A DNA stretch of 60,414 nt, counting the filler, from Perkinsus olseni (lineage: Eukaryota), in the NCBI GenBank assembly GCA_013115125.1. It is 2 parts of 2 records of this genome, joined end to end, with 100 filler letters (N's around TTAATTAATTAA, not from the genome) between each part and the next. Parts side by side here need not be neighbours in the genome. Positions count along the whole stretch, not along the records: positions 30,286 to 60,414 come from JABANN010000426.1; 1 more part is not named here. The stretch is one strand, 5' to 3'. The notes under the pieces are model-generated. The model was not told the DNA's origin, searched no databases, and saw only the letters and a list, made by a program, of their open reading frames with translations. The translations under genes and the position numbers were made by a program. Shown one piece after another: positions 4,101-49,831 of the stretch (positions within the stretch are counted from its first letter, which is position 1; each line of letters opens with the position of its first letter).

Positions 4101-7100
4101 CAAGCCCACTCTGGCGTTGGCTGGAATGGAGGCAACTAAATTATTCCTGCAGGTCAAGCTCAGCTCGGATTCACCGTAGCAGCAGTCAGGGGAAGGGCGG
4201 CTCCAGTTCCCGCTTGCAAGGCACGTCGCGTTGACTGTGCTCGTCAGTACTCCTCTCTCATCTAGAGAGGGAGAAGCCACATCGGTAAAGGTTACTCACC
4301 GAAGCAGAAACCTACCGCGCTGAGACCAGCCATCTATGCAACCAATCGTTACCCTAGCCCCCGGAGCCGTCGTGTCGAGAGGATGAACTCCCGGAGTGCT
4401 CGAATTAGCAGCAAAACCCGTGATCGACGCATATTCGGACTCGATACTCGACAAGGAACAAGTTGCCGTCGCCGTGAGGTTCGTTGCTGCAAGGAAATAC
4501 TCGCTGATGACTGCTCGTGCTTGATGGTCCTGCTCAGGCGAGCTGATCTTCACCCACCATTTCCGCAAGCCGGCCGCGACTGATGCAAATGGTCGCGTAT
4601 TTGACTCGCATTCGCACTCGCACGCGTCAGGAGACTCAGAGATGACCATGGTGGGTGGACTTCCACGGAGCTGTTGATCAAGGTCTGGTTCGCCCAAAAA
4701 GTCGCCGCCATCGCCGGGTGGCCGTTGAGATACAGCGCTGCAAGGCAACGAATCCAAGCATTCGAGCGACTTCCCAGACCATTTGCCAGCTGCCCTACTT
4801 GCGTTGTATTCTGAGATGTTCCTCAGCGCGGTGTTGTTTCCGTGGGTCGTCACGTTCGCTTCCATCACTCTCAGAGACTCAACGACAAGTCCTATGTGTA
4901 CCCAGGGTAGCGAGGCGAGAGCGTGAACGATGGTCAAAGGGCGGAACTGTACCAACCCGCTTGTGATGTTAGCCTCCTGACCCCGTAGTTCCTACATATT
5001 AGTCAAGGAGAGGGACGAAAAGTCTAGAAAATACCGCGACGTCAACTCACCAGGGATCCTCGCGAATAATTGTGGACCACTCTGGCTACGCTCGTGTGAA
5101 GTATCGTTGAGCTTGCATTAGCCTGGCACGAAGAGATAACAAGGTAACGAGAAACCGTTAGGGATACTCAGGTTAACGAATCGACGGTATCCATGCAACG
5201 GACATGAAAAAAGGCCTCAAGGGACGGCGCTCGAAAATAGGAAAGCGATCGGGAGCGACTCAGGACTGAACCGTCCCGAATCATCACGTCGGGCAGCGCT
5301 CACTTGGTGTGCTGATAAGCTCCGCCAGAAAATGAGTGAGAAATCAGTGCTATTCGCAGTCAGTAAGATGCTCTTGTTGGAGCAGTCGTCTCCACTCGAA
5401 TGTACTTCGCCAGGCAGCGCTGCTGGACGGTAGCAAAGCAAAGGTGAGCCCGCCAGAGACGCTTTCCACGTTCGGTTCAGGGAGCAGGTGAATCTGGGGG
5501 ATCCATACGCCCGCCGGTACCCCTGACACGGCAAAAGGTACCTCATTTACGATAAGCTAAGGATCGCGATAAGCATTCATACCTCGGGACACTCGACCTC
5601 TATATCCGCTCCCAAGGATCGATTGGAGCTCAGTGGAATGGTATAGTTGAACCATCGAGCGGTGAAGGGAGCAGTAGAGTCTGCCATCCTTCCTTGAGCC
5701 GTTTTCGGGCAGTATCTATCAGGGGAAAATAACGGCAGCGTCAGACATAAAGCAGTTTTGAAAGTTCGGAAAATTGGTGTACAGGAAAACGATGTATTGG
5801 TGCCTACTCGACGTCTCTCGAGCAGTGAGCTATGGGTGACGACCAGGTGCTATCGTTTCGGCAAGTAATGTTGACCCTCGTGTGGCCGCCGTCCAACTTG
5901 AAACCAGGGGCACACGAGAGCTGTAGTAGAGAATCAATGGCTCGTGAGACCTCCTGCGGAGGAGTCAGTAACTGAACGCCGGGGCACTCTAAGCGCATTG
6001 AGAGAAGCATTTCACTACGATGGTGGAGGTTGGATCAAGGACTTCCCAGGGGCTAGAACACATGTCTGCCCGCGGCGAACAGTTGAGAGTTGGAGCGGCA
6101 CCATTGTAACGGAGCCAATGCCCCGCGAGAGACCCTGTCTTTCTGCAGTACCTAGAGAGACTCTCGTACGTTCCGGCGCAGCCAAACGAGCGTCGGTACG
6201 GATGTAGACCGAGCGGGGACTTACAGAGCGTGCGAGATACCTTCCTCGTTTCGATAACCCGTGTTACAGTCGACAAACCCTACGTCTTGGGAGTAGTTGG
6301 ACCTAAGCGCAACGGCGTGCATTGCACTGCAGCGACCGGTTACCGGGTCGGTGATTGGATGAGTCCAGAGTGGCATCGTTAGCCTTCACAACGAAGATTG
6401 GTTTGCGAGGACCCCTTACTGAATGAGGCTTACACGACGAACCGTCCGTTGGTGATATTGAGCGGAGTCGGGCAATTTGGCAGGCTGGGGACCGATGCAT
6501 CCTGCCGAGAAAGGATGGACCAAAATACACTTGGGGAAAGTGTGTTAATGGTGCGTAATCAGGCTCTATCCGAAGGGACAGACGAGACTGACGTGTACTG
6601 AGCCCAAACCGAGTTAGCGGAGCGAAGCGATCGACCCTACTGGTTCTGAGGAGCACGACACGGGCAGTGTGTTGTTCAGTTGGACAACTCTCTCGGACGG
6701 TGTATCCAGAGATGGGCACCAGTCTCTGAGCGCGAGAGCGTGGTGCTCCGGTACGAAGGCCAAGACTATACCGTTCAAGATCGCAGCATTTCAGCGGCTC
6801 CGCTGCGCTACTGGTATCATTGAAGGGGACCCAGGAGGCGTTCGACTTCACCCACGAAACATGCTCGACTATGGTCCAGTTTGTTACTGTCACGGGCGTA
6901 CCGTTGACGGAACCGGTGGTGAACGTGTTGGTCACGTTTTCGAGCCGGGAGACCCTCAACGGCCGGGACATGTTGCATAGCATGTGAGTATCGCCGCTGG
7001 ATTGAGTATATCTAAACCGAATGAGCCACTTCATCATTGACTTGATCTGATCCAGGCCTCCAGAGGCTTCCAACAGTTTCCCGCGAGATTCATTTCAATG

Positions 7101-24566: not shown

Positions 24567-26072
24567 TTAGGTTTCATGACTATCATCGTCCGCATCAGCC
24601 GTGCCGGGCTCGTCCACAGTCCCTCGTTCTCGGATCCCGAGGAAAGGCAGCTCCTCTGAGGCAGTGCTGTCTCCTTGCAGTGAGCCTCCGCAAGCTCGCC
24701 TCAACCCTTCTACAAGTCCCTTGTCGTCAGCATCAGCCGCGTTGAAAAGTCTCCTCGCGGCGAAGGCGAAAGTCTGTGCAGCGACGCCCATCTCGGGTGG
24801 CCGTGCCTCCATGTTATTGACTACAGCCGTTTGCCCGAGCCGGAGCAGTTCGGACTGCCAGTACTGCAGAGCGTGGTACCTCTGGATGTCGATCAGATTA
24901 GGGCCCGGGAATGCTAGTTTCGCCTTCGCCTTAGGCTTCGGTTTCGCCTTGGGCTTCTTCACCGATTTAGAGTCATTTCTGGGGGGAACTACTCGCAACG
25001 TCGCCGACTTCAGTGTGGGGGCATGACCAGCATATTTGAATGGCAACTGGGTCGGCGACGCCGTCATATGCCCCTGGGCAGCTGGCAAACTCGAGAACGG
25101 AGCAGAACTCGCTCCCTGAATAGGTATCGCCTGCCTCATCATCGGCACCTGCGCCTTGCCCGACTGGGGCGGGAATGGCCCAGCAGGGCTTCCGTAGTCG
25201 AGCGGCCTGATGGCAGCTTGAACTCTGAATCGTATGTCCGAGTAGCTCTCATGGGAGGGCACAGAAACCGAGTTGGTTCCAGCGGAGCGATGCTGTCTCC
25301 ACAACTCTCGTAGCCGCGAGCCAGCAGCTTGGGCACAGGCGATCACATGGCCATTACTACCCAAAACCGACCCATAGAGCCCGAACTGCTGCCCCGTCCG
25401 TTGCGCCGGTCTCTCCATTACTACGAGCCCGATCGAGCTGCGGTAGTGATGCGGAGAGAAGTCAGACACGACAAGTTGGACGTCCTCGGGAGACAGACAT
25501 ACTCCAGTTCCTCCCGCAAGCCTCCCGGCGATACTAGCGAAGTCCACCGGGCCGACCGAGCCAGCGGCTTTGACCTCGTTGTCGAACTCAGTGATAATCT
25601 GTTTCACAGTCGATAAGTGTAGCTTCAATAAATGAGGATCGCGTTGCCGAATCTCTCGGTCGACGAGCTGCAACTCCGGAGCTTCTAGCCCAACTCTCGC
25701 TCTTTTGGCGGCCTGACGCTGCAAGTTGCCACCGCGGCGCTTTCGTGGCTTAGGCTCCTCGAACTGAGTGGTGCGTGGCCGCCGTTGCTTCATCCGAGAG
25801 TCAGAGTTCACAACATCCACGGCGGTCCCCGACACAGAATACTGGGCGCGGCCTGTGCCGAGCTGAATGAGTAAGAAATAGTAGGACTGGCAAAGTACTT
25901 GGAAACTTATTACTTCACTCGGCGCGTCGGAAACTTTGCTTTTCAACCAAGTTCCCTTCGGGTCAGCGAAATCGCCCGCAGATGCAGATGCAGTCGTCGA
26001 AGCTACCGTGCTGCTCGAATCCAAAAACGCGAAGCTCGGTGGGGACGAAGTTTGAGGGCGGTGATGATTCAT
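24567..26072 (-). CDS. Hypothetical protein, basic/low-complexity, possible NLS
   Basis: Long ORF (536 codons in the track). Likely ATG at 26072 and a probable in-frame intron near 25.86-25.91k. Basic patches KPRKRR and KKPKAKPKPKAKAK. No family recognised. Confidence 0.6.
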   Translation of the reverse strand: MNHHRPQTSSPPSFAFLDSSSTVASTTASASAGDFADPKGTWLKSKVSDAPSEVISFQVLCQSYYFLLIQLGTGRAQYSVSGTAVDVVNSDSRMKQRRPRTTQFEEPKPRKRRGGNLQRQAAKRARVGLEAPELQLVDREIRQRDPHLLKLHLSTVKQIITEFDNEVKAAGSVGPVDFASIAGRLAGGTGVCLSPEDVQLVVSDFSPHHYRSSIGLVVMERPAQRTGQQFGLYGSVLGSNGHVIACAQAAGSRLRELWRQHRSAGTNSVSVPSHESYSDIRFRVQAAIRPLDYGSPAGPFPPQSGKAQVPMMRQAIPIQGASSAPFSSLPAAQGHMTASPTQLPFKYAGHAPTLKSATLRVVPPRNDSKSVKKPKAKPKPKAKAKLAFPGPNLIDIQRYHALQYWQSELLRLGQTAVVNNMEARPPEMGVAAQTFAFAARRLFNAADADDKGLVEGLRRACGGSLQGDSTASEELPFLGIRERGTVDEPGTADADDDSHET

Positions 26073-26178
26073 AAATGGTTTCAACAGCACGATGTGAGAC
26101 CCTGGAAATTCGAGTTTGCGGAAGTGGGATGAGCAACGATCCATAAAGCAGGAGGTAGTAGCAGGCCGCCCTACCACG

Positions 26179-26251
26179 GGCCTCGTGGCCTAACGGATAA
26201 GGTGTTGATATTCTGAACCAAAAATTGGGGGTTCGAGTCGCACCGAGAGCA
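26179..26251 (+). pseudogene. Degenerate tRNA-Arg(TCT)-like sequence
   Basis: 73 nt: GGCCTCG TG GCCT AACGGATA AGGT G TTGAT ATTCTGA ACCAA AAATT GGGGG TTCGAGT CGCAC CGAGAGC A. Canonical cloverleaf spacing, A box TGGCCTAACGG and near-consensus B box, but 2 mismatches in the acceptor stem, 1 in the anticodon stem and 2 in the T stem. Confidence 0.75.
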
Positions 26252-30285: not shown

Positions 30286-31583
30286 CCGCGAGACCTTCGA
30301 TGATGCCGAGGACCAGTAGCAGACGGATCATGTTGAGGATAACCACACTTGTTCAACAGACTTCAGTGCGGTTCGGAACGACGCGCGTGCTGCGTTCCTC
30401 CGAAACCGCCCGAGGCGCGCGCAAATACACCTAGTAATCGTAAGGGTCCCCTCGGCCGGGTTGGAGCCCTTTGCGCCAGCTGAACTCGCTCCAGGCGAAG
30501 CCTTGCTAATTTTACTTACGTGATAAAAGCTTACAGATGAAACAGGGTTCAGTAATTTCGACCAACAAAATGCACGCATGCTCATGTGTTGATGCGTAGG
30601 GGACAGCTCTCTTGCGACAAGACTGTGAGGACGGCGCAGAGCTGTGCGGTACCAACGTATGAACCCCCGAAAGGGGCTCCTTCTGGAACCACAGTCACTA
30701 GTGTCGCAGAAACTCTCAAGGGAGTGGGCCGGGACCGGTCGAAACCCGACAGGGCAACCAGAAACCCGAACTGTTATCCAAGGCTAAGCTGCTCACAAGC
30801 GAGCCAGAAATCCGAGCTGTTAGGTGGGTGAAGGCGGGAGTACAAATTTGGGGCAAGGGGTACAAAGAAAAGAGGCACGCACTAAAAAAGTTTTGACATC
30901 GCGAACAAAAATGTTGCCTTCGGCAACACTTTTCCCTTCGACAAGTTCTCCAGTGGAGAATCTCCACCCGAGTTCTATCCGCACACAGCGCGTTTCTCCG
31001 AATTTACGTGCAACTGCAATAAAAGCGCGTTATCGAGGAAGGTCCGATCTTGGAGCAAGTTCAATGAATGAGAGGTTGGGGGCGCGGTGGCGAGCGCGGC
31101 TGCCCGGGCGAGCGCGTGTGTCGTGGAGGAAATGCCGGTCGTCGGTCGAGCGGGTGTGGTCGAGACCTCGAAATTTTTTGGTTTGCGTCATTTGATTGGA
31201 TTGTTTGCGCATGGCAATAAGATCCCAGTTCTTTCAGACCACAAAGGCCGCAGGTTAAGCAGAGAGTAATATCAAGTTGTGTATAATAAAGGGTGTTTCA
31301 CTGCGGTGTGAGTGACTTTGATCGTGGTCCCACTGGCGAGAAATGAGTGTTTGGCGATGAAAATTGGGCCAGAGGGGCTCAATATCATAGAAAGTGCGAC
31401 GCCGGAGTTTGATAGATCCACGAGGTGCGCAGCCAGAATTACAACGCGAAAGGACCTCCAAGGAGCCCCTCCGCTCAGCCGCGTTTTTCTGTCCGACTGT
31501 CCAGCTCCCCTTGCATAGGCATGGCGGCCTTGTGACCCCCCACCCTTTGAAATCGACCCTTCGTGAACAGCTACAGCTGGGCT

Positions 31584-31808
31584 ACACCTCGGAGTTGGAG
31601 ATAATGACCTCGAGCCACGGAACAGTCACGTTGTCCAATGCAGCAGGGTTCTTCCAATGCAGCAGGGTTCTTCACGGTGACAGGGTTCACAAGGACCCAA
31701 ACAGTCGTAGGGCAACACCTCGGAGTTGGAGATAATGACCTCGAGCCACGGAACAGTCACGTTGTCCAATGCAGCAGGGTTCTTCACGGTGACAGGGTTC
31801 ACAAGGAC
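31584..31808. repeat. Near-tandem direct duplication of a 94-bp unit
   Basis: 31584-31696 and 31715-31808 are identical except that copy 1 carries an internal 19-bp duplication (ccaatgcagcagggttctt). Confidence 0.9.
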
Positions 31809-36338: not shown

Positions 36339-39222
36339 ATGAGCAATATAAAGCACTACGGTGACGTCAGCGAAGCGGTCCTACGCGAGGAGGCCGCCTC
36401 TGGCGGCCACCATCCATCGACCAGTACCATACCTTCCCCAACTCCTGAGGGCCCCAGGAGGGAGTCTGAGGTACTATTGGACGGTATTTCACGTATGTCT
36501 GGGTGGTTCCGAAGACCTGTTGTTCGGAGAGGGGTGGGATGGCCAAGATCGTGAGAAAATGAATTTCCGAAGTGCACGAATTTTTGTGGCGCGCGACGGG
36601 AGTTCCAACGCAAGACGACGATCTTGAGATCACCGCCAAACGCTCACTCTGTGGCCAAGAACGCGCTCTCGGAATCACCGTTCCTAAAGCCCTGTCTAGC
36701 AGCAGGAGTAGTAAAAGGAGAGTGGCTTCTGTGACGAATGGAGTCAGGTGCTCCAAAGGGCCAAGCAAAAGGCAGATGACTTGCACAAAGCCTTTGAGGA
36801 AGTTAGGAAGACCAAAGGGGACCTCAGCGCAGCCGTGCCCGGGTCTGACAGGGAGGTCAAGAACAAGCTCAGGCTTATCGGTGAGCCGATTTGCCTTTTC
36901 GGAGAGGATGCCGCTGATCGGAGAGGTCGACTGAAGTTGCTCTTGTCAAAGGGAAAGTATCAGGAGCTCCTGAAGCCCGCAGCGAAGGAAGCTGCTAGAG
37001 GTGAGAACGAAAGTTGCGGTTGGTGTGGTATTGGAAAATTTAGGAGACGATAAGAAGGGCAAGGTCGAGCAGGAGTTGTTCTTCACTATTGGTAGTGAGA
37101 ATTTGAAGGCGAAGCGAAGGAAGCTTTGGGAAATTAGTCGGCAGAAGTCGAAGAAAGTAATTACGGAGTTTATGGTATGGCCCAGAGGCTTCTAGTTGAG
37201 CGTCGTGGTCTCTCAAGAGTGGTGGTCTCTCAAGAACGGCTCCAAGGAACAAAATAGAATAGCTCGGCTCCTCCTCAGCCGATTCGAAGCTGCTTCGGAG
37301 CTGCCGTTGTGTCTTGCTGTTGAATATCCTGGTTGTTCTGGTAGGCTCTGGAGGCGGAGCGAGCTGACTTCCACAAGACCATCGATTACGACTATAACAG
37401 ACGCTTTACGGTCCTTGCCGACGCCCTCAGGTGACCACCTGCCTTGTACGGCCTGTGACGCCACTGCAACCTGCCTCAGATCTGCTCATTCTATTGAGGA
37501 GTTCACCGGAGCTGGCTCGGAGAGTCGTCCGCTGTCACATATCCGATTGTCGAGGGCTGCCAGAGGGGCCGATGCCACCTCGCAGGCTGGCCGGGTCGCT
37601 GTGGCGAGCTGGAGCGGCTATATAGGGGTAGGGTTGGTATCTTAGGTTGAAGCTAGGAAGATATGTGTGTGGTAGATATGGACGGCGGATGAGTCGATGA
37701 AACGCTTGTACACCCTCGGCACGGACGGTCATGGGCACTCCGACAGGTAATTATGACCACTCCCTCAACTCATCTGTTCGAGTGCCTCTCGTGGGAACTA
37801 AGGGTGTCCTCCCTGTACTTTGTATAAGATTGGGGTTGGAAATACTATAACGGAGAATATAGTCATACCATTCATCGCCGACATCGTATCAATGGCCGTA
37901 GTGACACGTCGGCTGAGGTTCTTTCGAAGGGCAATGCCCTGACCTCGCTTGCATATCTTGACACCATGCTGATACCATTTTTCTTGGCACGGGCGGGACT
38001 GAGCCAAAATTGATTTTATTTGTTTCAAGGTTCGACCTAAGATATGCTCTACTTTCTGCTCAGGTGCCAGGCTGTGGCGTGGAACCCTAACGGGCGCCAG
38101 CTAGCAAGTGCCGGTGCTGATCATAACGTAGGCTTGCTGCTGTTCCCTCCTGCAGTACACCATATGGCAGATCTGTATTTGGGACCTGCCGACAGCCGAT
38201 GCTGACGCCAGCATCGACGACCCGGTTTCCCTCCAGCCAGCGGCTGTCCTCGAGGGCCACGAGCTGCGAGTCAACAACGTGGAGTATGTTCCGGTAAATT
38301 GATCTCAAAAAAACTTAGCGGAGCGAAGCTAGGATTGGTGATCAGGTCTACCCGCAGTTGGTAGCATCTACATCACATGATGATACCTGGCGACTTTGGG
38401 ATATCGAGAAGCAGGAGGAGATCTTGCTTCAGGAAGGCCACAACCATCCCGTACTATCCCTCGCCACGGGGACCTTTTCCCATCTTTTCCGGCAGGTTTT
38501 TGGTCTCGCTATTCACCCCTGTGGGTCGCTGATAGCCACCTCTGACATGAGCGGTGTGGTGAGGGTGTGGGACCTCCGTACCGGTCGGACAGTCCTCCCC
38601 CTCACCTACGAAGACGGGGGCCACTGCAAGGGTACGCCGAGCCAAACTCATTTCTCTTGATACATCAGTGCTGGTCTGACTAAGCCGGTCTTCGGCGTTG
38701 GACTTCAAATTCGCGCACACGACGATTCTGACCCACCAATTTTTAGGTGTGCTGGCGGTGGACTTCTCGCCGAACGGTTTCCAGCTGGCCACTGGCGGTA
38801 TGGACAACAGTGTCAAACTGTGGGACCTTCGGAAGCGTCGTAGACTCGAAAATCTGTAAGGTCACGAGTTGCTGAATTTTTGGTATCTTAGCTTGACTTC
38901 AGCCCTGCTCATGAGAAGTTGATTTCGGATGTCCGATTCTCCCCTGACGGTCGACTACTGCTCACAGCCGGCTACGACGGTGTGGCTAAGTTGTGGAACA
39001 CACTGGATTGGACGGACGTTCGCAACCTTCCTGTTGCCTGCAACAAGGTTGGAATTAGTATGTGTGTCGCGGGAGAAGTATTGGTCCGTCCAGGTTATGT
39101 CGGCTGATATTGACGGGTCTGTTGTTGCCACTGCGGGCTTCGACCGTCAGTTTAAGATATGGAAACTGCCTAGTGAGGAGGTGAAGGACGACGATGATGA
39201 TGTTGAGATGAAAACGCAGTAG
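36339..39222 (+). CDS. PRPF4: U4/U6 snRNP protein Prp4 (PRP4 motif + WD40 repeats), multi-exon
   Basis: [34 protein letters not shown] (PRP4/SFM motif), [13 protein letters not shown] repeats [70 protein letters not shown]. Confidence 0.92.
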
Positions 39223-44546: not shown

Positions 44547-46665
44547 TCAGTCCTCATACAGGATACCGGGATGGGTGTTGCCAAAGTGATGCGATCCATC
44601 AACTAGCTGAGGCCCTCCGCCATTGCCGCCGCTGGTAGTGTTGTCGTAAACTGGGGAGCTGGCGAATGGGTAGGAAGACACGCCATTGCCGCCGCTGGTA
44701 GTGTTGTCGTAAACTGGGGAGCTGGCGAATGGGTAGGAAGACACTCCATAGTGGTGATGGGCAGGATAGGTCTCATTATACTGCTGCTGGTGTTGGTGTT
44801 GGTGGTTATTAGCGTATCCCTCACTCCGAGGGCTGAATCCCGTCCCAAAGGGGGTCTCATTCGGGCCTACAGTCCGGCCACTCGAGGACCTGGTGCAGTA
44901 ACTCTCCGCACCACCGCCACCGCCACCAAAGTGAACAGAGGTTTGGATAGGAGGCTTGGCAAGGATGGAGGGGCCCCCGCCTACTGCTACTCCCGATTGT
45001 TGGGACTCCTCGAAGTAGGATGGCGATTCACTGCTCGGGTTTGTGCTGGCGCCGTTGACTACGCTGGGCCAGTAGGCTCCACCGCTCTGTGCCGCCGCGG
45101 CCGCAGCAACCTGACATTGGAAATCGCCCCGTTTCACGCGACCGTACTCTTACCGCAGCAGCAGCCATCTGGTGCATCTGATGGCTTCTGATGGCGGCTG
45201 CAGTGGCCATCGCTCTGTGCATGGCCATGGCAGGATCGTCCGTCGGCGGAGGGTTGAGTAGGGCGCCAGGGTGGTGTTGATGAGTGTCCCCTTGGGGAGG
45301 AGGCAGTTGACTATAATAGTACCTGAAGGTCAATCGGCCGTTAAAATTCTGACTCGACTCACGAAATCTTGCGCGTGCGCGGATTCCAGAGCCGCAGAGA
45401 TTGAGATTTTACGTACTGCATGTCTACTTGACTGGGAGCATGACGAAACTAACCCTGTACCACGGTTTGGCAACTCACCCAGGGTAAGCAGCATGAGCAG
45501 CAGGTAGTCCCTCCTGTTGCTGATGGTAGTTCATTACCATCATCGGATGGTGATGATGATGATGCGCAGCATAATGATGATGATGTCCTTGCACGCTCGA
45601 AGTCGACGAGTGTAGGGTCGGTGCCACCACAGTACTCGGGCTACCTGCGTTGTTCCTGTTGCCAGCAGCAACCGCCGGCCCCGGGTAGGAGCCCGGAGGC
45701 ATCAGCAAGCTGGGATGCTGTAGAAGCGGATGTGCGGCATACTGATGATGATGTCCACTCTGGCTCCCCCCTTGTGGCCCTTCATACCGCGCTCCTGGGA
45801 GGGCATTGCCTCTCTGCTGTTCCGTCCAGGACTGCCGACGCCGTCTGCTACCACTCCCAGCAGACCTAGAACTACTCTCTGTCGGAATTGCGATGCTGGT
45901 GCTCCTCGGTCGATTGCCTCTGGTCTTCTCCCGAGTCACCGCTGCCTTACCAGCAACCTTAGACTGCTGTGCCGCCGCCGCCGCTGCCGTCGACGGTTGC
46001 TGCTGCTGCTGCTGTTGCTGATTTTTCATAACCTCCAAGCGCTTGGGCGGATTCCTTTGGTCACCATTATCCTTCCTTGGCCGCTGGCCCGGGTACATCT
46101 CCCTCAGCTTCCGATCCACGCTGTTATCCAGATTATAGCAATAGCGTCTCATGCCAGTTTTCATCTCCTCCTCAGTGTGAGCGAATCGACAATTATCCCC
46201 AGCTCGACACCTGATACCATACTTACACGCACCCTCCATCAGCCTCCGCGGGACGAAGTGGATGTCCTCCACGCCGTGACCATAGAGGCACTGCCCCTCG
46301 GCGAATCTCTGGCAATGCCCATGGGCTTCATATTCCGGACACGCATATGACTTCGGGTCCTTGAGCTCCTCCGGGCAGTGAGCGTAGGGGCAATCGTCAC
46401 CGGCCGAGCATCCTCCTTGCCGCGTGAGAAAGTAGATACAAAGTTTTGAACGGTGGTAGTAATCAACATAGTCGGGACGAGACCGACTTTGACCGAAGTC
46501 CTTCGATTTCTCGGGATCTTCACCAGCTTCTAGTCTGGAGGAGCTGGAAGCCGGATTTCCAGTCCTCGGTGAACCTCCAACAGTCAGACCGTCGCCACTG
46601 TTATTAACCTCTTCCCTGCCGAGCGACTCTGAGTGGTTCACCGCACGATCAGGAGATACGGTCAT
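44547..46665 (-). CDS. CCCH zinc-finger RNA-binding protein with Q/H/S-rich disordered tail
   Basis: CIYFLTRQGGCSAGDDCPYAH, CPEYEAHGHC..QCLYGH, CKYGIRCRAGDNCRFAH, followed by polyQ and polyH tracts. ATG (MTVSPDR) at 46665; one intron inferred near 45.33-45.48k. Confidence 0.8.
44619..44744. repeat. Perfect 63-bp in-frame tandem duplication
   Basis: Two identical copies (44619-44681, 44682-44744) encoding VSSYPFASSPVYDNTTSGGNG. Confidence 0.95.
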
Positions 46666-46789
46666 AGTGAAGGAAGGCTGCCAGCGGTGACCTCCCAGAT
46701 TAACCAAATACAACAACCATCCGAGAGGCTAAGAAACCAGCAGCGGCTGTGGGAGCTGCTGTCCTCATTTACGTTCAGGGAGCCTTTTC

Positions 46790-49700
46790 TCAGCCGGAGT
46801 GCTCCAGACTGGTTAAGGTCCTACAAACCCGGATGAGGCAACGCCGGATCCCGAGGCCTCGTCTACCTGTGGAGATCGTTGGTCTGCTCCGTAATGTGCT
46901 CCAACGACCTCTGGTGGATGTTCAGAATCTTCACCAGACTCTGCAACGCTGTGGGCTCCGTGGCATCGCTAGCATCTCCGGCGTAGGTAGAGCCCGCGAG
47001 CTGATCATGTTTGTATCACGCTTCAACCTAAGATTCCCATCCTACGGATTTGGTGGTAGCCATGAGCTCCTCTAATTGCCGCTCCATGTCGTCCAGCTGC
47101 CCAGACACGGCCACCGCTCTGTCACCAACTAAAGAGACCATAATAATGCCCACGCCAGGATTCGAACCCGGGATCTCCAGCTTACCACTCGCTGCCTCAT
47201 TTTTCCCGCGTTGTACTCCTGATAGCAGCGTAGAGGCCGAGCCGCCACTACTGACAGAGAGAGCGGTCCTTGGCCTTCGCCAGGAGCCCCGAGCACTCAC
47301 TTTGCGCCCCCGGCCACGCCGCCGCCAGCGCCCTGCATCTCCTTCATAACAGCCTGCTGGACATCCTCCAACAGCTCACCAAGGGACTGCTGTTGACCCG
47401 CTATTGATGCCAGGGCCGAGTCCACCTGCCGACGCCGTACCATAACTTTCCCAAATTCCAGATTATCACTGCGAATGAGCGGAGTATGCTATTGTTTCAC
47501 TAGGCTCCGTTGGATCAGCTACAGAATCCACAGAGACTCGAGCGAGTATCAACTGCCATAGCGATCAAGGCCTCCCTTGTTGCCCCATGCCATCGCCCAA
47601 CATCAGTTAGAGAATACTACCATCTGCGCCGTGTTCTTCAGTTGCACATGCTGAGCATCGAGAGCCCTGAGCTCCCTGGTCGCCTGGATCAGCTTGGAGT
47701 CCACAGCGAGGACCTCTGACCCGTACTGGTTGAACTGATTGGCTTGCATAGACAACCTGAATCAACACTTCGTCCCACTTTTCGACCTACTCCTGCGGAT
47801 AAAGCACAGAACTTGCGTCCATTGCGATCTGAGGTCAGGGGTTTTCGACGTTGCTGAATTCGACGGAACAGTCGGCGTGTCGAAGTTCGCTATCCTCGCC
47901 GAGGCCCGCCCGTTCGCAATCTTTTCACTGCACACGGTGGCGACTAACCAACATTTATCGTATCAACGGGACCCCAAAAAAGGACCATCCCAGTAGCTGC
48001 ACATAAGCACTGCGTGAAATGATCTCGCCGCGGCAGCCGATTACAGTCAGCGGATCTCAGATCGGACTGCACGCAAATTTCACCCTTGACAGCGGGACGC
48101 CCTGTTCTACCGCTACTACCTTTGGTCCCATAAAGTAAGGACATCCGTAAGCTTCCTATGCTCCAATACTCCCACACGGGCGCCGCCGGTGGCGGTCGAG
48201 GACGACGAAGAAGCCGGCGCAGCTGAGAGGCCCAGTCGTACTCATTCGGTGTCCAATTCCATCCGACCGCTCACCTCCGAAGAGCCCACCGCCTCCGCTG
48301 CTGCTGCCAGTGGTGGCAGACCCGAAGAGGCCCCCACCACCCGAGGAAGATGAGGTGGAAGAAGATGATGAAGCTGGAGCCGCGCCGAACAGGCCACCTC
48401 CTGCAGCCGACGACGATGACGGAGCAGCACCGAAGAGGCCGCCACTGGAGCTGCTGCTGCTGCCGCCGCCTGTGCTGGCCGGAGCCGCACCGAAAAGGCC
48501 GCCAACAGACGATGATGAGGCAGGCGCAGCTGAGAGATTCTGATCAACGGACGCGATGGTGTATGCCCACCTACCACCAAAGAGTCCACCGCCGCCCGCA
48601 CTGCTGCTAGCAGGAGCGCTCCCGAAAAGCCCACCACCAGCAGCGGACGAGGAAGATGAAGCCGGGGCCGCGCCGAAGAGGCCTCCCCCTCCAGAGCTGC
48701 TACTGGCGGGTGCCGCACCAAACAGGCCACCACCACTGGAGCTGCTTGCGCCGGCCGGGGCTGAGCCGAACAGGCCGCCACCACCGGAGCTGCTGCTGCC
48801 TGTGCTGGCCGGAGCAGCACCGAAGAGGCCACCGGCAGTTGACGAGGAGGAAGCGGACGCTGGAGCTACAGACGGATCAACTTAACGGAATTCCGTGCCT
48901 TCGACGTTCTTACCGCCGAAGAGGCCACCAGCGCTGGAGCTACTGCTGCCGGTAGTGGACGCACCGAAGAGGCCACCTGTACCGCTAGAAGACGTGGCAG
49001 CTGGGGCACCTGAGAGCTCACAATACGTACTGAGGGGCCCACATGGCACAACAGCATAAGAATAATTACGGACGAGTGGCGAGAGAACCAGAAGCAGTGA
49101 AAGGGGACCCGCCAATTCGACCGCGATCGGGGATGATTCTGTTGAGCTTCGGTCCCTCCCGGGCGCCATGACGAAGCGAAGTTCCTAGACTGAATGGATC
49201 CTTCTAACATGCTATTGATGGTCCCACAGAGGACTTGGAGCTCTTTGCCGTCGAGCGAAGTATTAAGGGCCTTCCTGCTCTTACCGCCGAAAAGGCCGCC
49301 TCCGCTGCTGCTACTGCCTGTCCCGAAGAGTCCACCGCCGGAAGAGCTCGAACCCGAGGCAGCTCCTGAAGGGTGGCGCACTATCGAAAAGAGCCTTGCT
49401 GCGATGTCGTGAGACCTACCGAACAGGCCACTACTAGCGGCTGACGAAGACGCCGGAGCCGATCCGAAAAGGCCACCTCCCGCCGCGGACGATGCTGGGG
49501 CAGCACCGAAAAGGCCGCCGCTGGCAGATGACGCTTGGGCTCCCCCGAAGAGACCGCCACCACCAGCTGAGGACGAGGCTGGGGCTGCACCGAAGAGACC
49601 ACCGCCGCTGGCAGCAGACGAGGCCGGCGCTGCACCAAAGAGACCACCACTAGCAGCAGATGCCGGGGTGGCACCGAAAAGGCCGCCACCGCCGGCTGCA

Positions 49701-49831
49701 GACGACGCTGGGGCTGCGCCGAAGAGACCACCACCAGAAGCCGGAGCACCTGACGAAGGTGATCAACGGCCGTCTCGAAGGCCAGTACTACCGAAAAGGC
49801 TTCCGCCGCTACTCGAACCTCCGCCGAACAT
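46790..49831 (-). CDS. NUP62: FG-repeat nucleoporin of the Nup62/Nsp1 type, multi-exon
   Basis: Starts MFGGGSSSGGSLF with many GGLFG repeats (48.2-49.8k). C-terminal coiled coils include QLDDMERQLEELM and ALQSLVKILNIHQRSLEHI, matching the Nsp1/Nup62 C-terminal L.KILN.H..SL motif. Ends ...TLTSLEHSG*. Confidence 0.8.
47147..47185 (-). pseudogene. tRNA-Thr-like 3' half forming the 5' part of a Nup62 intron
   Basis: Minus strand reads GTAA GCTGG AGATC CCGGG TTCGAAT CCTGG CGTGGGC A. T stem fully paired (one G-U), perfect B box GGTTCGAATCC, GGGCA end as in many tRNA-Thr. It starts at the GT of an NGT anticodon. Confidence 0.7.

Follow-up and report, generated by a model that had tools for sequence, protein, structure and literature searches.

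For most introns the sequence from which they arose has been erased, and cases in which the source can still be named are rare. According to the main text of two surveys of intron gain, the sources named there are mitochondrial DNA, transposons, and internal duplications, and one of the described routes is the capture of filler DNA in double-strand-break repair, as in the gains found in Daphnia and in an intron of mitochondrial-DNA origin, with transfer RNA (tRNA) remaining unmentioned in the main text of both (PMC3443670, PMC3296678). Introners and transposon-derived introns are recognisable as products of another genomic element, and introners, in the accounts given of them, form many near-identical copies, often having terminal repeats and target duplications that build the splice site (PMC11282704; for Amoebophrya, PMC7789003). 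In the genus Perkinsus itself, the described families of Dada DNA transposons of P. marinus, of 4.7–11 kb, break genes for Ile, Leu, Gly, and Tyr tRNAs, the site of insertion being the D arm (Kojima and Jurka 2013, PMC3706591). Here we describe a stretch of 60,414 nucleotides (nt), filler included, of Perkinsus olseni (assembly GCA_013115125.1), which we call the window, in which the gene of a nucleoporin of the Nsp1/Nup62 type carries, on the minus strand at 47129–47185, a 57-nt intron whose first 39 nt look like the 3′ half of a tRNA. The intron itself is real, and its origin from a fragment of a tRNA gene, with the anticodon loop working as 5′ splice site, is the reading that we favour by a little.

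Compared with these systems, this case would be a variant of filler-DNA intron gain drawing on a class of source that is not in the surveyed reviews. As in the filler-DNA gains, a short piece of foreign DNA from an abundant cellular source would have come to lie in a formerly continuous exon, and have been spliced out at once thanks to splice signals that were usable by chance; unlike in those gains, the source would be a fragment of a nuclear tRNA gene and not mitochondrial DNA, the donor putatively comes from a threonine anticodon loop, no short direct repeats flank the insert, and the gain appears old and present in two lineages instead of being caught as a polymorphism. The intron shares with introners and transposon-derived introns its apparent, still recognisable descent from another genomic element, but the 39-nt segment is single-copy in the window, has only two partial relatives in a public DNA sequencing run (X1, below), and carries no end repeats. 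With Dada it has in common the genus and, putatively, the broken tRNA gene, but there is no transposon trace at 47129–47185. Like tRNA pseudogenes and tRNA-derived short interspersed elements (SINEs), the segment has a B box and T arm that stand alone, with no working cloverleaf around them; unlike them, it consists of the 3′ half only, lies on the sense strand of a protein gene, and makes up a 57-nt intron. A full-text literature search retrieved no paper on a spliceosomal intron made from a tRNA half, and a search of the same kind for sequence strings of the 57-nt and neighbouring introns gave no match.

The intron and its host gene

The host gene, on the minus strand, encodes a phenylalanine-glycine (FG) nucleoporin in which both parts of the Nsp1/Nup62 layout were found, namely an FG-repeat region (Pfam Nucleoporin_FG on 48156–48881, E 2.8e-14) followed by the Nsp1_C coiled-coil domain, the latter detected on the spliced product P0001 (NCBI KAF4744152.1; 2.4e-9, 37.4 bits against a cut-off of 24.1). 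This 188-residue protein equals the spliced product of the 3′ exons bar a few residues, with 96% identity to the window over the aligned exon residues. The parts of the gene around the intron are as follows.

47129–47185, minus strand: GT–AG spliceosomal intron of 57 nt, donor GTAAGC, acceptor TTTAG, in frame and stop-free (joint 47128/47186 in contigs; 19-residue gap against P0001)
47186–47250, minus strand: upstream exon of 65 nt (contig pieces)
47046–47128, minus strand: downstream exon of 83 nt, start of the conserved helix DRAVAVSGQLDDMERQLEEL (contig pieces; protein alignment)
48156–49762, minus strand: FG-repeat (GGLFG) exons of the same nucleoporin gene (Pfam Nucleoporin_FG on 48156–48881; open reading frames)

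Splicing was checked by aligning the contigs of four public runs on 46750–47950, that is, three RNA-type runs from three studies (X7, X8, and X19, of which only X19 is recorded as RNA) and the DNA run X1. The exact joint of 47128 to 47186 was found in one contig of each of the RNA-type runs (3/3), and the skipped 57 nt, whose plus-strand ends are CT..AC, are GT..AG on the gene strand, where positions 47185 to 47129 read GTAAGCTGGAGATCCCGGGTTCGAATCCTGGCGTGGGCATTATTATGGTCTCTTTAG, starting with GTAAGCTGG and ending in CTTTAG. In X1, by contrast, no contig has this joint, and the DNA run spans the whole stretch in one piece without any of the joints. On the protein side, P0001 aligned with the read-through translation shows one clean gap of 19 residues, exactly the 19 codons of the intron, and in four more distant homologues, too, nothing corresponds to them. 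The segment 47129–47185 is a real, ordinary U2-type GT–AG intron with exact borders. Its 57 nt stand beside sister introns of 45, 46, 50, 195, and 363 nt, all GT..AG, and its donor GTAAG fits theirs (GTAGAC, GTAGGA, GTGAGT, and, twice, GTAGTA), and no clear branch-point motif of the CTRAY kind was seen in the 57-mer. No contig of the RNA-type runs was seen to retain the intron, although contigs drop rare variants and would hide occasional retention.

A first-pass annotation of this DNA had proposed the segment as an intron, with splicing only inferred, and had described it as in frame, stop-free, and interrupting the coiled-coil region of Nup62. The joints of X7, X8, and X19 and the gap in P0001 now bear out the splicing, the minus-strand sequence confirms the frame, and the two Pfam domains together with the protein alignment agree with the placement, the intron site being a poorly conserved linker immediately before the last helix, in the C-terminal coiled-coil part.

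As a side observation on the protein, the NCBI name of P0001 is “Charged multivesicular body protein 3 [Perkinsus olseni]”, its sole significant Pfam domain being Nsp1_C, which suggests that the product name is an annotation error; its gene model is without the FG-repeat exons. Longer homologues of P0001 were not found among 5341 candidates, nor was a full-length orthologue from another named Perkinsus species.

Transfer RNA likeness of the first 39 nucleotides

The tRNA-like part of the intron and the tail that follows it are laid out in this way.

47147–47185, minus strand: stretch like a tRNA 3′ half, positions 35–73 by geometry (Rfam RF00005, 25.5 bits, 5′-truncated)
47158–47168, minus strand: exact B-box consensus 11-mer in a 17-nt T arm at 47155–47171 (motif search; the minimum-free-energy and centroid folds keep the hairpin)
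47129–47146, minus strand: T-rich tail of 18 nt that follows the discriminator and closes with the acceptor AG; CCA absent (sequence)

The T stem has 5 base pairs, one of them G–U, and the T arm carries the invariant G53, T54, T55, C56, R57, A58, and C61, with 5 nt standing at the place of the variable loop and 7 nt plus an A at the place of the acceptor 3′ strand and the discriminator. When a 53-nt sequence, offered as 5′-truncated, was searched against all 4227 Rfam families, RF00005 (tRNA) was matched at 25.5 bits over model positions 32–71 of 71 (E 4.4e-4), including the consensus bases U33, A37, A38, A44, G45, C48, the full T arm, C72, and A73; the Infernal alignment also places the last two exon bases, 47186–47187, at positions 33–34. 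The neighbouring intron, searched likewise as a control, gives no tRNA match. In 300 simulations, the expectation per 60-kb window was 0.05 for an exact B box and 0.14 for a relaxed T arm, and the real window has one, the exact B box being unique in it, as is the 39-mer at up to three mismatches.

Geometry and Infernal agree in giving G-G-T at positions 34–36, with U33 before it and A37-A38 after it, of which G34 and U33 are exon bases. An NGU anticodon stands for threonine in the genetic code, and a variable loop of this form is also found in cytosolic tRNA-Thr genes elsewhere among eukaryotes. We infer the threonine identity from this placement, as well as the homology of the segment up to the GT.

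A complete cloverleaf (5′ acceptor strand, D arm, A box) is absent, there being no full-length Rfam match at the locus. ARAGORN at default settings calls no tRNA gene in the window, and between 46700 and 48200 there is no A-box-like motif and, on the upstream side of the fragment, no sequence complementary to the acceptor strand, the only match with one mismatch lying downstream, at 46956. The early statements that no 5′ half lies upstream and that no CCA follows the discriminator hold on all these counts. The “exact tRNA geometry” also claimed at that time stands as regards the layout and the T arm, with a borderline match to the covariance model, but not as regards the anticodon-stem and acceptor strands, given that structure is checkable for the T arm only and that neither “anticodon stem 3′ strand” nor “acceptor 3′ strand” is a label open to falsification without a 5′ half. 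The tRNA likeness is real and mostly T-arm-based, significant for the window and borderline for the genome.

Two other tRNA-like calls in the window deserve mention. With lowered thresholds, ARAGORN reports a “tRNA-Phe(aaa)” at 47147–47235, which we discarded as noise, as the window has 12 such calls at 85% and 121 at 75%. The sole tRNA-like match of the whole-window Rfam search is at 26179, where positions 26179–26251 (plus strand) hold a full-length, degenerate tRNA-like sequence of 26.5 bits, below the cut-off of 29, which ARAGORN calls Arg(tct) only at 95% thresholds; its acceptor and T stems are mismatched, no T run stands behind it, and it lies immediately upstream of a long minus-strand open reading frame (24567–26189). 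It is probably a tRNA pseudogene.

Related loci and age of the intron

Only two other contigs of X1 touch the fragment, and over 19–26 nt only. The first of them (record 2) matches 47145–47170 at 24 of 26 positions, a stretch comprising most of the T arm, all of the acceptor 3′ strand, the discriminator, and 2 nt beyond it, and then runs on with T's on the gene strand, like the end or terminator of a gene transcribed by RNA polymerase III (Pol III). The second (record 3) has an identical T arm, G–U pair included (19/19), followed by a different acceptor strand. The match of record 2 reaches 13 nt past the generic T loop, and the chance of at least 11 matches in 13, given a shared T arm, is about 1e-5 per tRNA gene (our own estimate, made without a tool), and we regard this match as the strongest evidence for homology to a real tRNA-like locus. 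Together with the T run, it would favour a genomic tRNA-gene relative. The first-pass preference for a genomic tRNA gene over a mature tRNA as source is strengthened by this match and its T run besides the lack of CCA, and is qualified by record 2 being only a putative tRNA gene; its locus may be either a different tRNA or one that has diverged over positions 35–49. Counted by hand, the intron tail and the 3′ flank of record 2 share 12 of 18 identities, and the TAG with which each of them ends falls at an equal offset, compared with 3 matches of 14 for the adjoining exon (p ~0.04 for the tail likeness after composition). This is a weak hint that the flank was captured too, or that record 2 is itself a related intron.

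A search of P0001 against 1.84 billion representative proteins led to P0004, an open reading frame call of 90 residues on a 5759-nt Logan contig of a close relative, the call running on through introns as if they were coding. In the exon parts its residues are almost all those of the window, and between ...EAAS and VGDRAV... it has 17 codons (51 nt) against 19 in the window, retaining the residues coded by G52-G53, U55-C56, A58, C61-C62, G64-G65, G70-G71, and A73. The minimum changes that its codons imply are A38 to T, C40 to A, A46 to G, C49 to T (which leaves a wobble pair), A59 to T, and G67 to A, in addition to an insertion of 3 nt and a tail that is 9 nt shorter, and both versions of the intron are multiples of three and stop-free. 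The intron is thus orthologous in the two lineages, whose introns are otherwise strongly diverged, and because P0004 keeps the T-arm codons at the same site, the tRNA-like core was already present in the common ancestor of both, and the intron is not recent. By hand count, the T arm has diverged at 2 of about 12 readable positions against 4 of about 15 plus indels outside it, similar to the neighbouring intron, and since its divergence is not clearly lower than that outside, there is no sign of selection on the T arm.

These results bear on the central first-pass proposal, the capture of a tRNA fragment carrying a ready-made donor. The intron, its tRNA-like 39 nt, and the partial match within the same genome speak for it, and the position of the intron in the relative turned out to hold a homologous sequence at the same site, not an unrelated intron; a recent capture is what is now disfavoured.

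Other introns and neighbouring features

The same spliced contigs skip four further introns of the gene, the first four given here, and a fifth can be placed from a loose end.

47001–47045, minus strand: neighbouring intron of 45 nt, its first 26 nt being a repeated intron motif (contig joint; repeat pair I3)
47251–47300, minus strand: intron of 50 nt (contig joint; GT..AG)
46821–46866, minus strand: intron of 46 nt (contig joint read with cut +1)
47426–47620, minus strand: intron of 195 nt (contig joint read with cut +2)
47757–48119, minus strand: probable intron of 363 nt, with no listed joint (loose end 47758 to exon ending 48120, 3 runs)

The first 26-mer of the 45-nt intron (47020–47045, minus strand) recurs at 23 of 26 positions at a GT-starting site on the plus strand, 37628–37653, has exact matches of 22 nt and 18 nt in two other X1 contigs, and is found in looser copies with a CTTAG..GAAGC core at 38030–38043, 38311–38335, and 6613–6628. 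These repeats may mark a family of introner-like introns or, alternatively, an extended splicing motif of this genome.

Within the 363-nt intron, at 47757–47890 (minus strand), two in-frame stretches (“...EDSELRH...” and “...KWDEVLI...”) translate to peptides like the Nup62 helix, either by coincidence or as relics of an older exon. Taking “VEKWDEVLIQ” (47757–47786) and the upstream “EDSELRH...” as exons with a frameshift was ruled out, the RNA contigs putting both inside the intron. Run X7 additionally has contigs that lie entirely within the two long introns, at 47451–47601 and 47776–47950. Their depth is low (16.4 and 7.9, where the spliced contig reaches 438.7), and they are unspliced RNA or a little DNA in the library.

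Downstream of the nucleoporin gene lies a long single open reading frame at 45475–46728 (minus strand) with CCCH zinc fingers (Pfam zf_CCCH_4, zf-CCCH_2, and zf-CCCH). Elsewhere in the window, 44618–44743 and 31579–31808 hold a perfect 63-nt tandem duplication and direct repeats of 44–76 nt, 99–100% identical, 112–131 nt apart.

Origin of the intron

Descent of the 39 nt from a tRNA-like sequence is likely. The best reading, to which we give slightly better than even chances, is that a 3′ fragment of a tRNA gene was captured into an exon in an ancestor of both lineages, with its anticodon loop supplying the donor. More tentatively, and at chances somewhat short of even, we propose that the whole intron was made in one step from the 3′ portion of a tRNA-Thr gene and its T-rich flank, the anticodon loop becoming the donor and the Pol III terminator region the pyrimidine tract and acceptor. 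The captured 3′ piece of a nuclear tRNA gene would extend from the anticodon loop as far as the discriminator and probably on through about 18 nt of the T-rich 3′ flank. Its insertion into a formerly continuous exon would have occurred, most simply, as filler DNA in double-strand-break repair, and no later than in the common ancestor that this organism shares with the relative represented by P0004. In tRNA geometry, G35-U36-A37-A38 and G39 read GTAAG, which would have worked as the 5′ splice site, while the T-rich flank would have provided the pyrimidine tract and the acceptor AG. The insert would have been tolerated even with inefficient splicing because it is a multiple of three, stop-free, and situated in a weakly conserved linker. 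It is the capture, and the creation of the intron by that insertion, that we infer here. Fragments of tRNA genes are expected to be plentiful in the genus, because P. marinus, as reported for five tRNA gene types, has more than 500 copies of them besides transposons that cut tRNA genes (PMC3706591).

Several results weigh against this origin. The Rfam score of 25.5 bits is below the gathering score of RF00005, 29, which is set for whole tRNAs; the match is seen only with the stretch cut at the 5′ end of the fragment, searches of 2.5 kb and of the whole window listing none here; and, scaled to about 250,000 windows, a few such scores would be expected by chance. The fold of the 57-mer is no better than that of shuffles (z = +0.56), a result that is neutral for origin but speaks against selection for a structure. 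Apart from 1 ambiguous base, neither a target-site duplication nor a direct repeat flanks the intron, which is common to the relative, so that no intron-less allele or sister species shows the gain. The match of record 2 covers only about positions 50–73 and nothing of 35–49, so that homology of the donor itself is putative, as is the threonine source. In metagenomes, a scan with an exact 30-mer gave no locus, a result that is uninformative for a protist, and a degenerate 22-mer of T arm plus acceptor gave 19 loci (11 tRNA-Arg, 2 tRNA-Glu, 6 uncalled, and 0/19 Thr), which are prokaryote-type, have none similar upstream of the T arm, and are equally uninformative for a protist.

Among the other explanations, the one with most to say for itself, unlikely as we hold it to be, is that a tRNA-derived repeat (a SINE, a miniature inverted-repeat transposable element, an introner-like element, or a tRNA piece beside a transposon) is involved, or that the fragment landed in a pre-existing intron, instead of one direct capture that created the intron. 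Intron sequence families exist here, as the first 26 nt of the neighbouring intron show with their copy at 37628 and in two X1 contigs; record 2 ends in ...TAG 18 nt after the discriminator, as the 57-nt intron does, and could be a copy of an intron instead of a tRNA gene; in P. marinus, Dada transposons are described inside tRNA genes (PMC3706591), and introner elements are reported from the sister lineages Amoebophrya and dinoflagellates (PMC7789003, PMC11282704). The 39-mer, however, has no second copy in the 60-kb window and only the two X1 matches of 19–26 nt, there are neither terminal inverted repeats nor a target-site duplication, and the described Dada families hit genes for Ile, Leu, Gly, and Tyr, and these in the D arm, not a Thr gene in its anticodon loop (PMC3706591). 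A chance resemblance, in which an ordinary old intron carries a hairpin of 5 bp with a consensus B box and the other tRNA labels are read into it, we judge quite improbable. The T arm alone is structurally testable, a relaxed one being expected 0.14 times in each random window; the Rfam score falls short of gathering, needs a hand-set truncation, and would find some chance cases in about 250,000 windows; and one of the 12 noise calls of ARAGORN at 85% falls here with the label Phe. Chance would nevertheless have to account for the 24/26 match to record 2, which runs 13 nt past the T loop through the acceptor strand and discriminator, and for the consensus bases outside the T arm that match too (U33, A37, A38, A44, G45, C48, and A73).

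The capture might also have involved a DNA copy of an RNA, the 3′ half of a pre-tRNA cut in the anticodon loop, still with its 3′ trailer, having been reverse-transcribed, and to this we give a rather small probability. The anticodon loop is where tRNA halves get cut, and the fragment begins there; besides, the lack of CCA and the short T-rich tail would suit an unprocessed trailer ending in a T run. Against such a copy, no signature of reverse transcription (poly-A or target duplication) is seen, and the 18-nt tail with its internal non-T bases fits a genomic flank equally well. Least probable by far is a tRNA-like element kept for a function, for example as a B box binding TFIIIC or as a signal in pre-mRNA processing. 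It is true that both lineages keep the T-arm codons and that the implied changes C49 to T and A59 to T preserve pairing and the invariant loop bases, but the divergence of the T arm (2/~12) is not clearly below that outside it (4/~15 plus indels) and resembles what is seen in the neighbouring intron, and the fold has no added stability. Capture of a tRNA-gene fragment as DNA is the reading that we keep, at the strength stated above.

Meaning of the finding

If the likeness to a tRNA were due to chance, the locus would be just one ordinary short intron of a nucleoporin gene. The segment is in frame and stop-free in a loosely conserved linker, and it shows why an insert of this kind can survive. 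If the proposed origin is true, a fragment of a tRNA gene with its anticodon loop as donor adds a very abundant class to the source DNAs of introns, and Thr-type 3′ halves would be over-represented at the 5′ ends of introns in genomes rich in tRNA genes. The tRNA-Thr genes would then be latent intron seeds, and more such introns would be expected in tRNA-rich genomes like that of Perkinsus.

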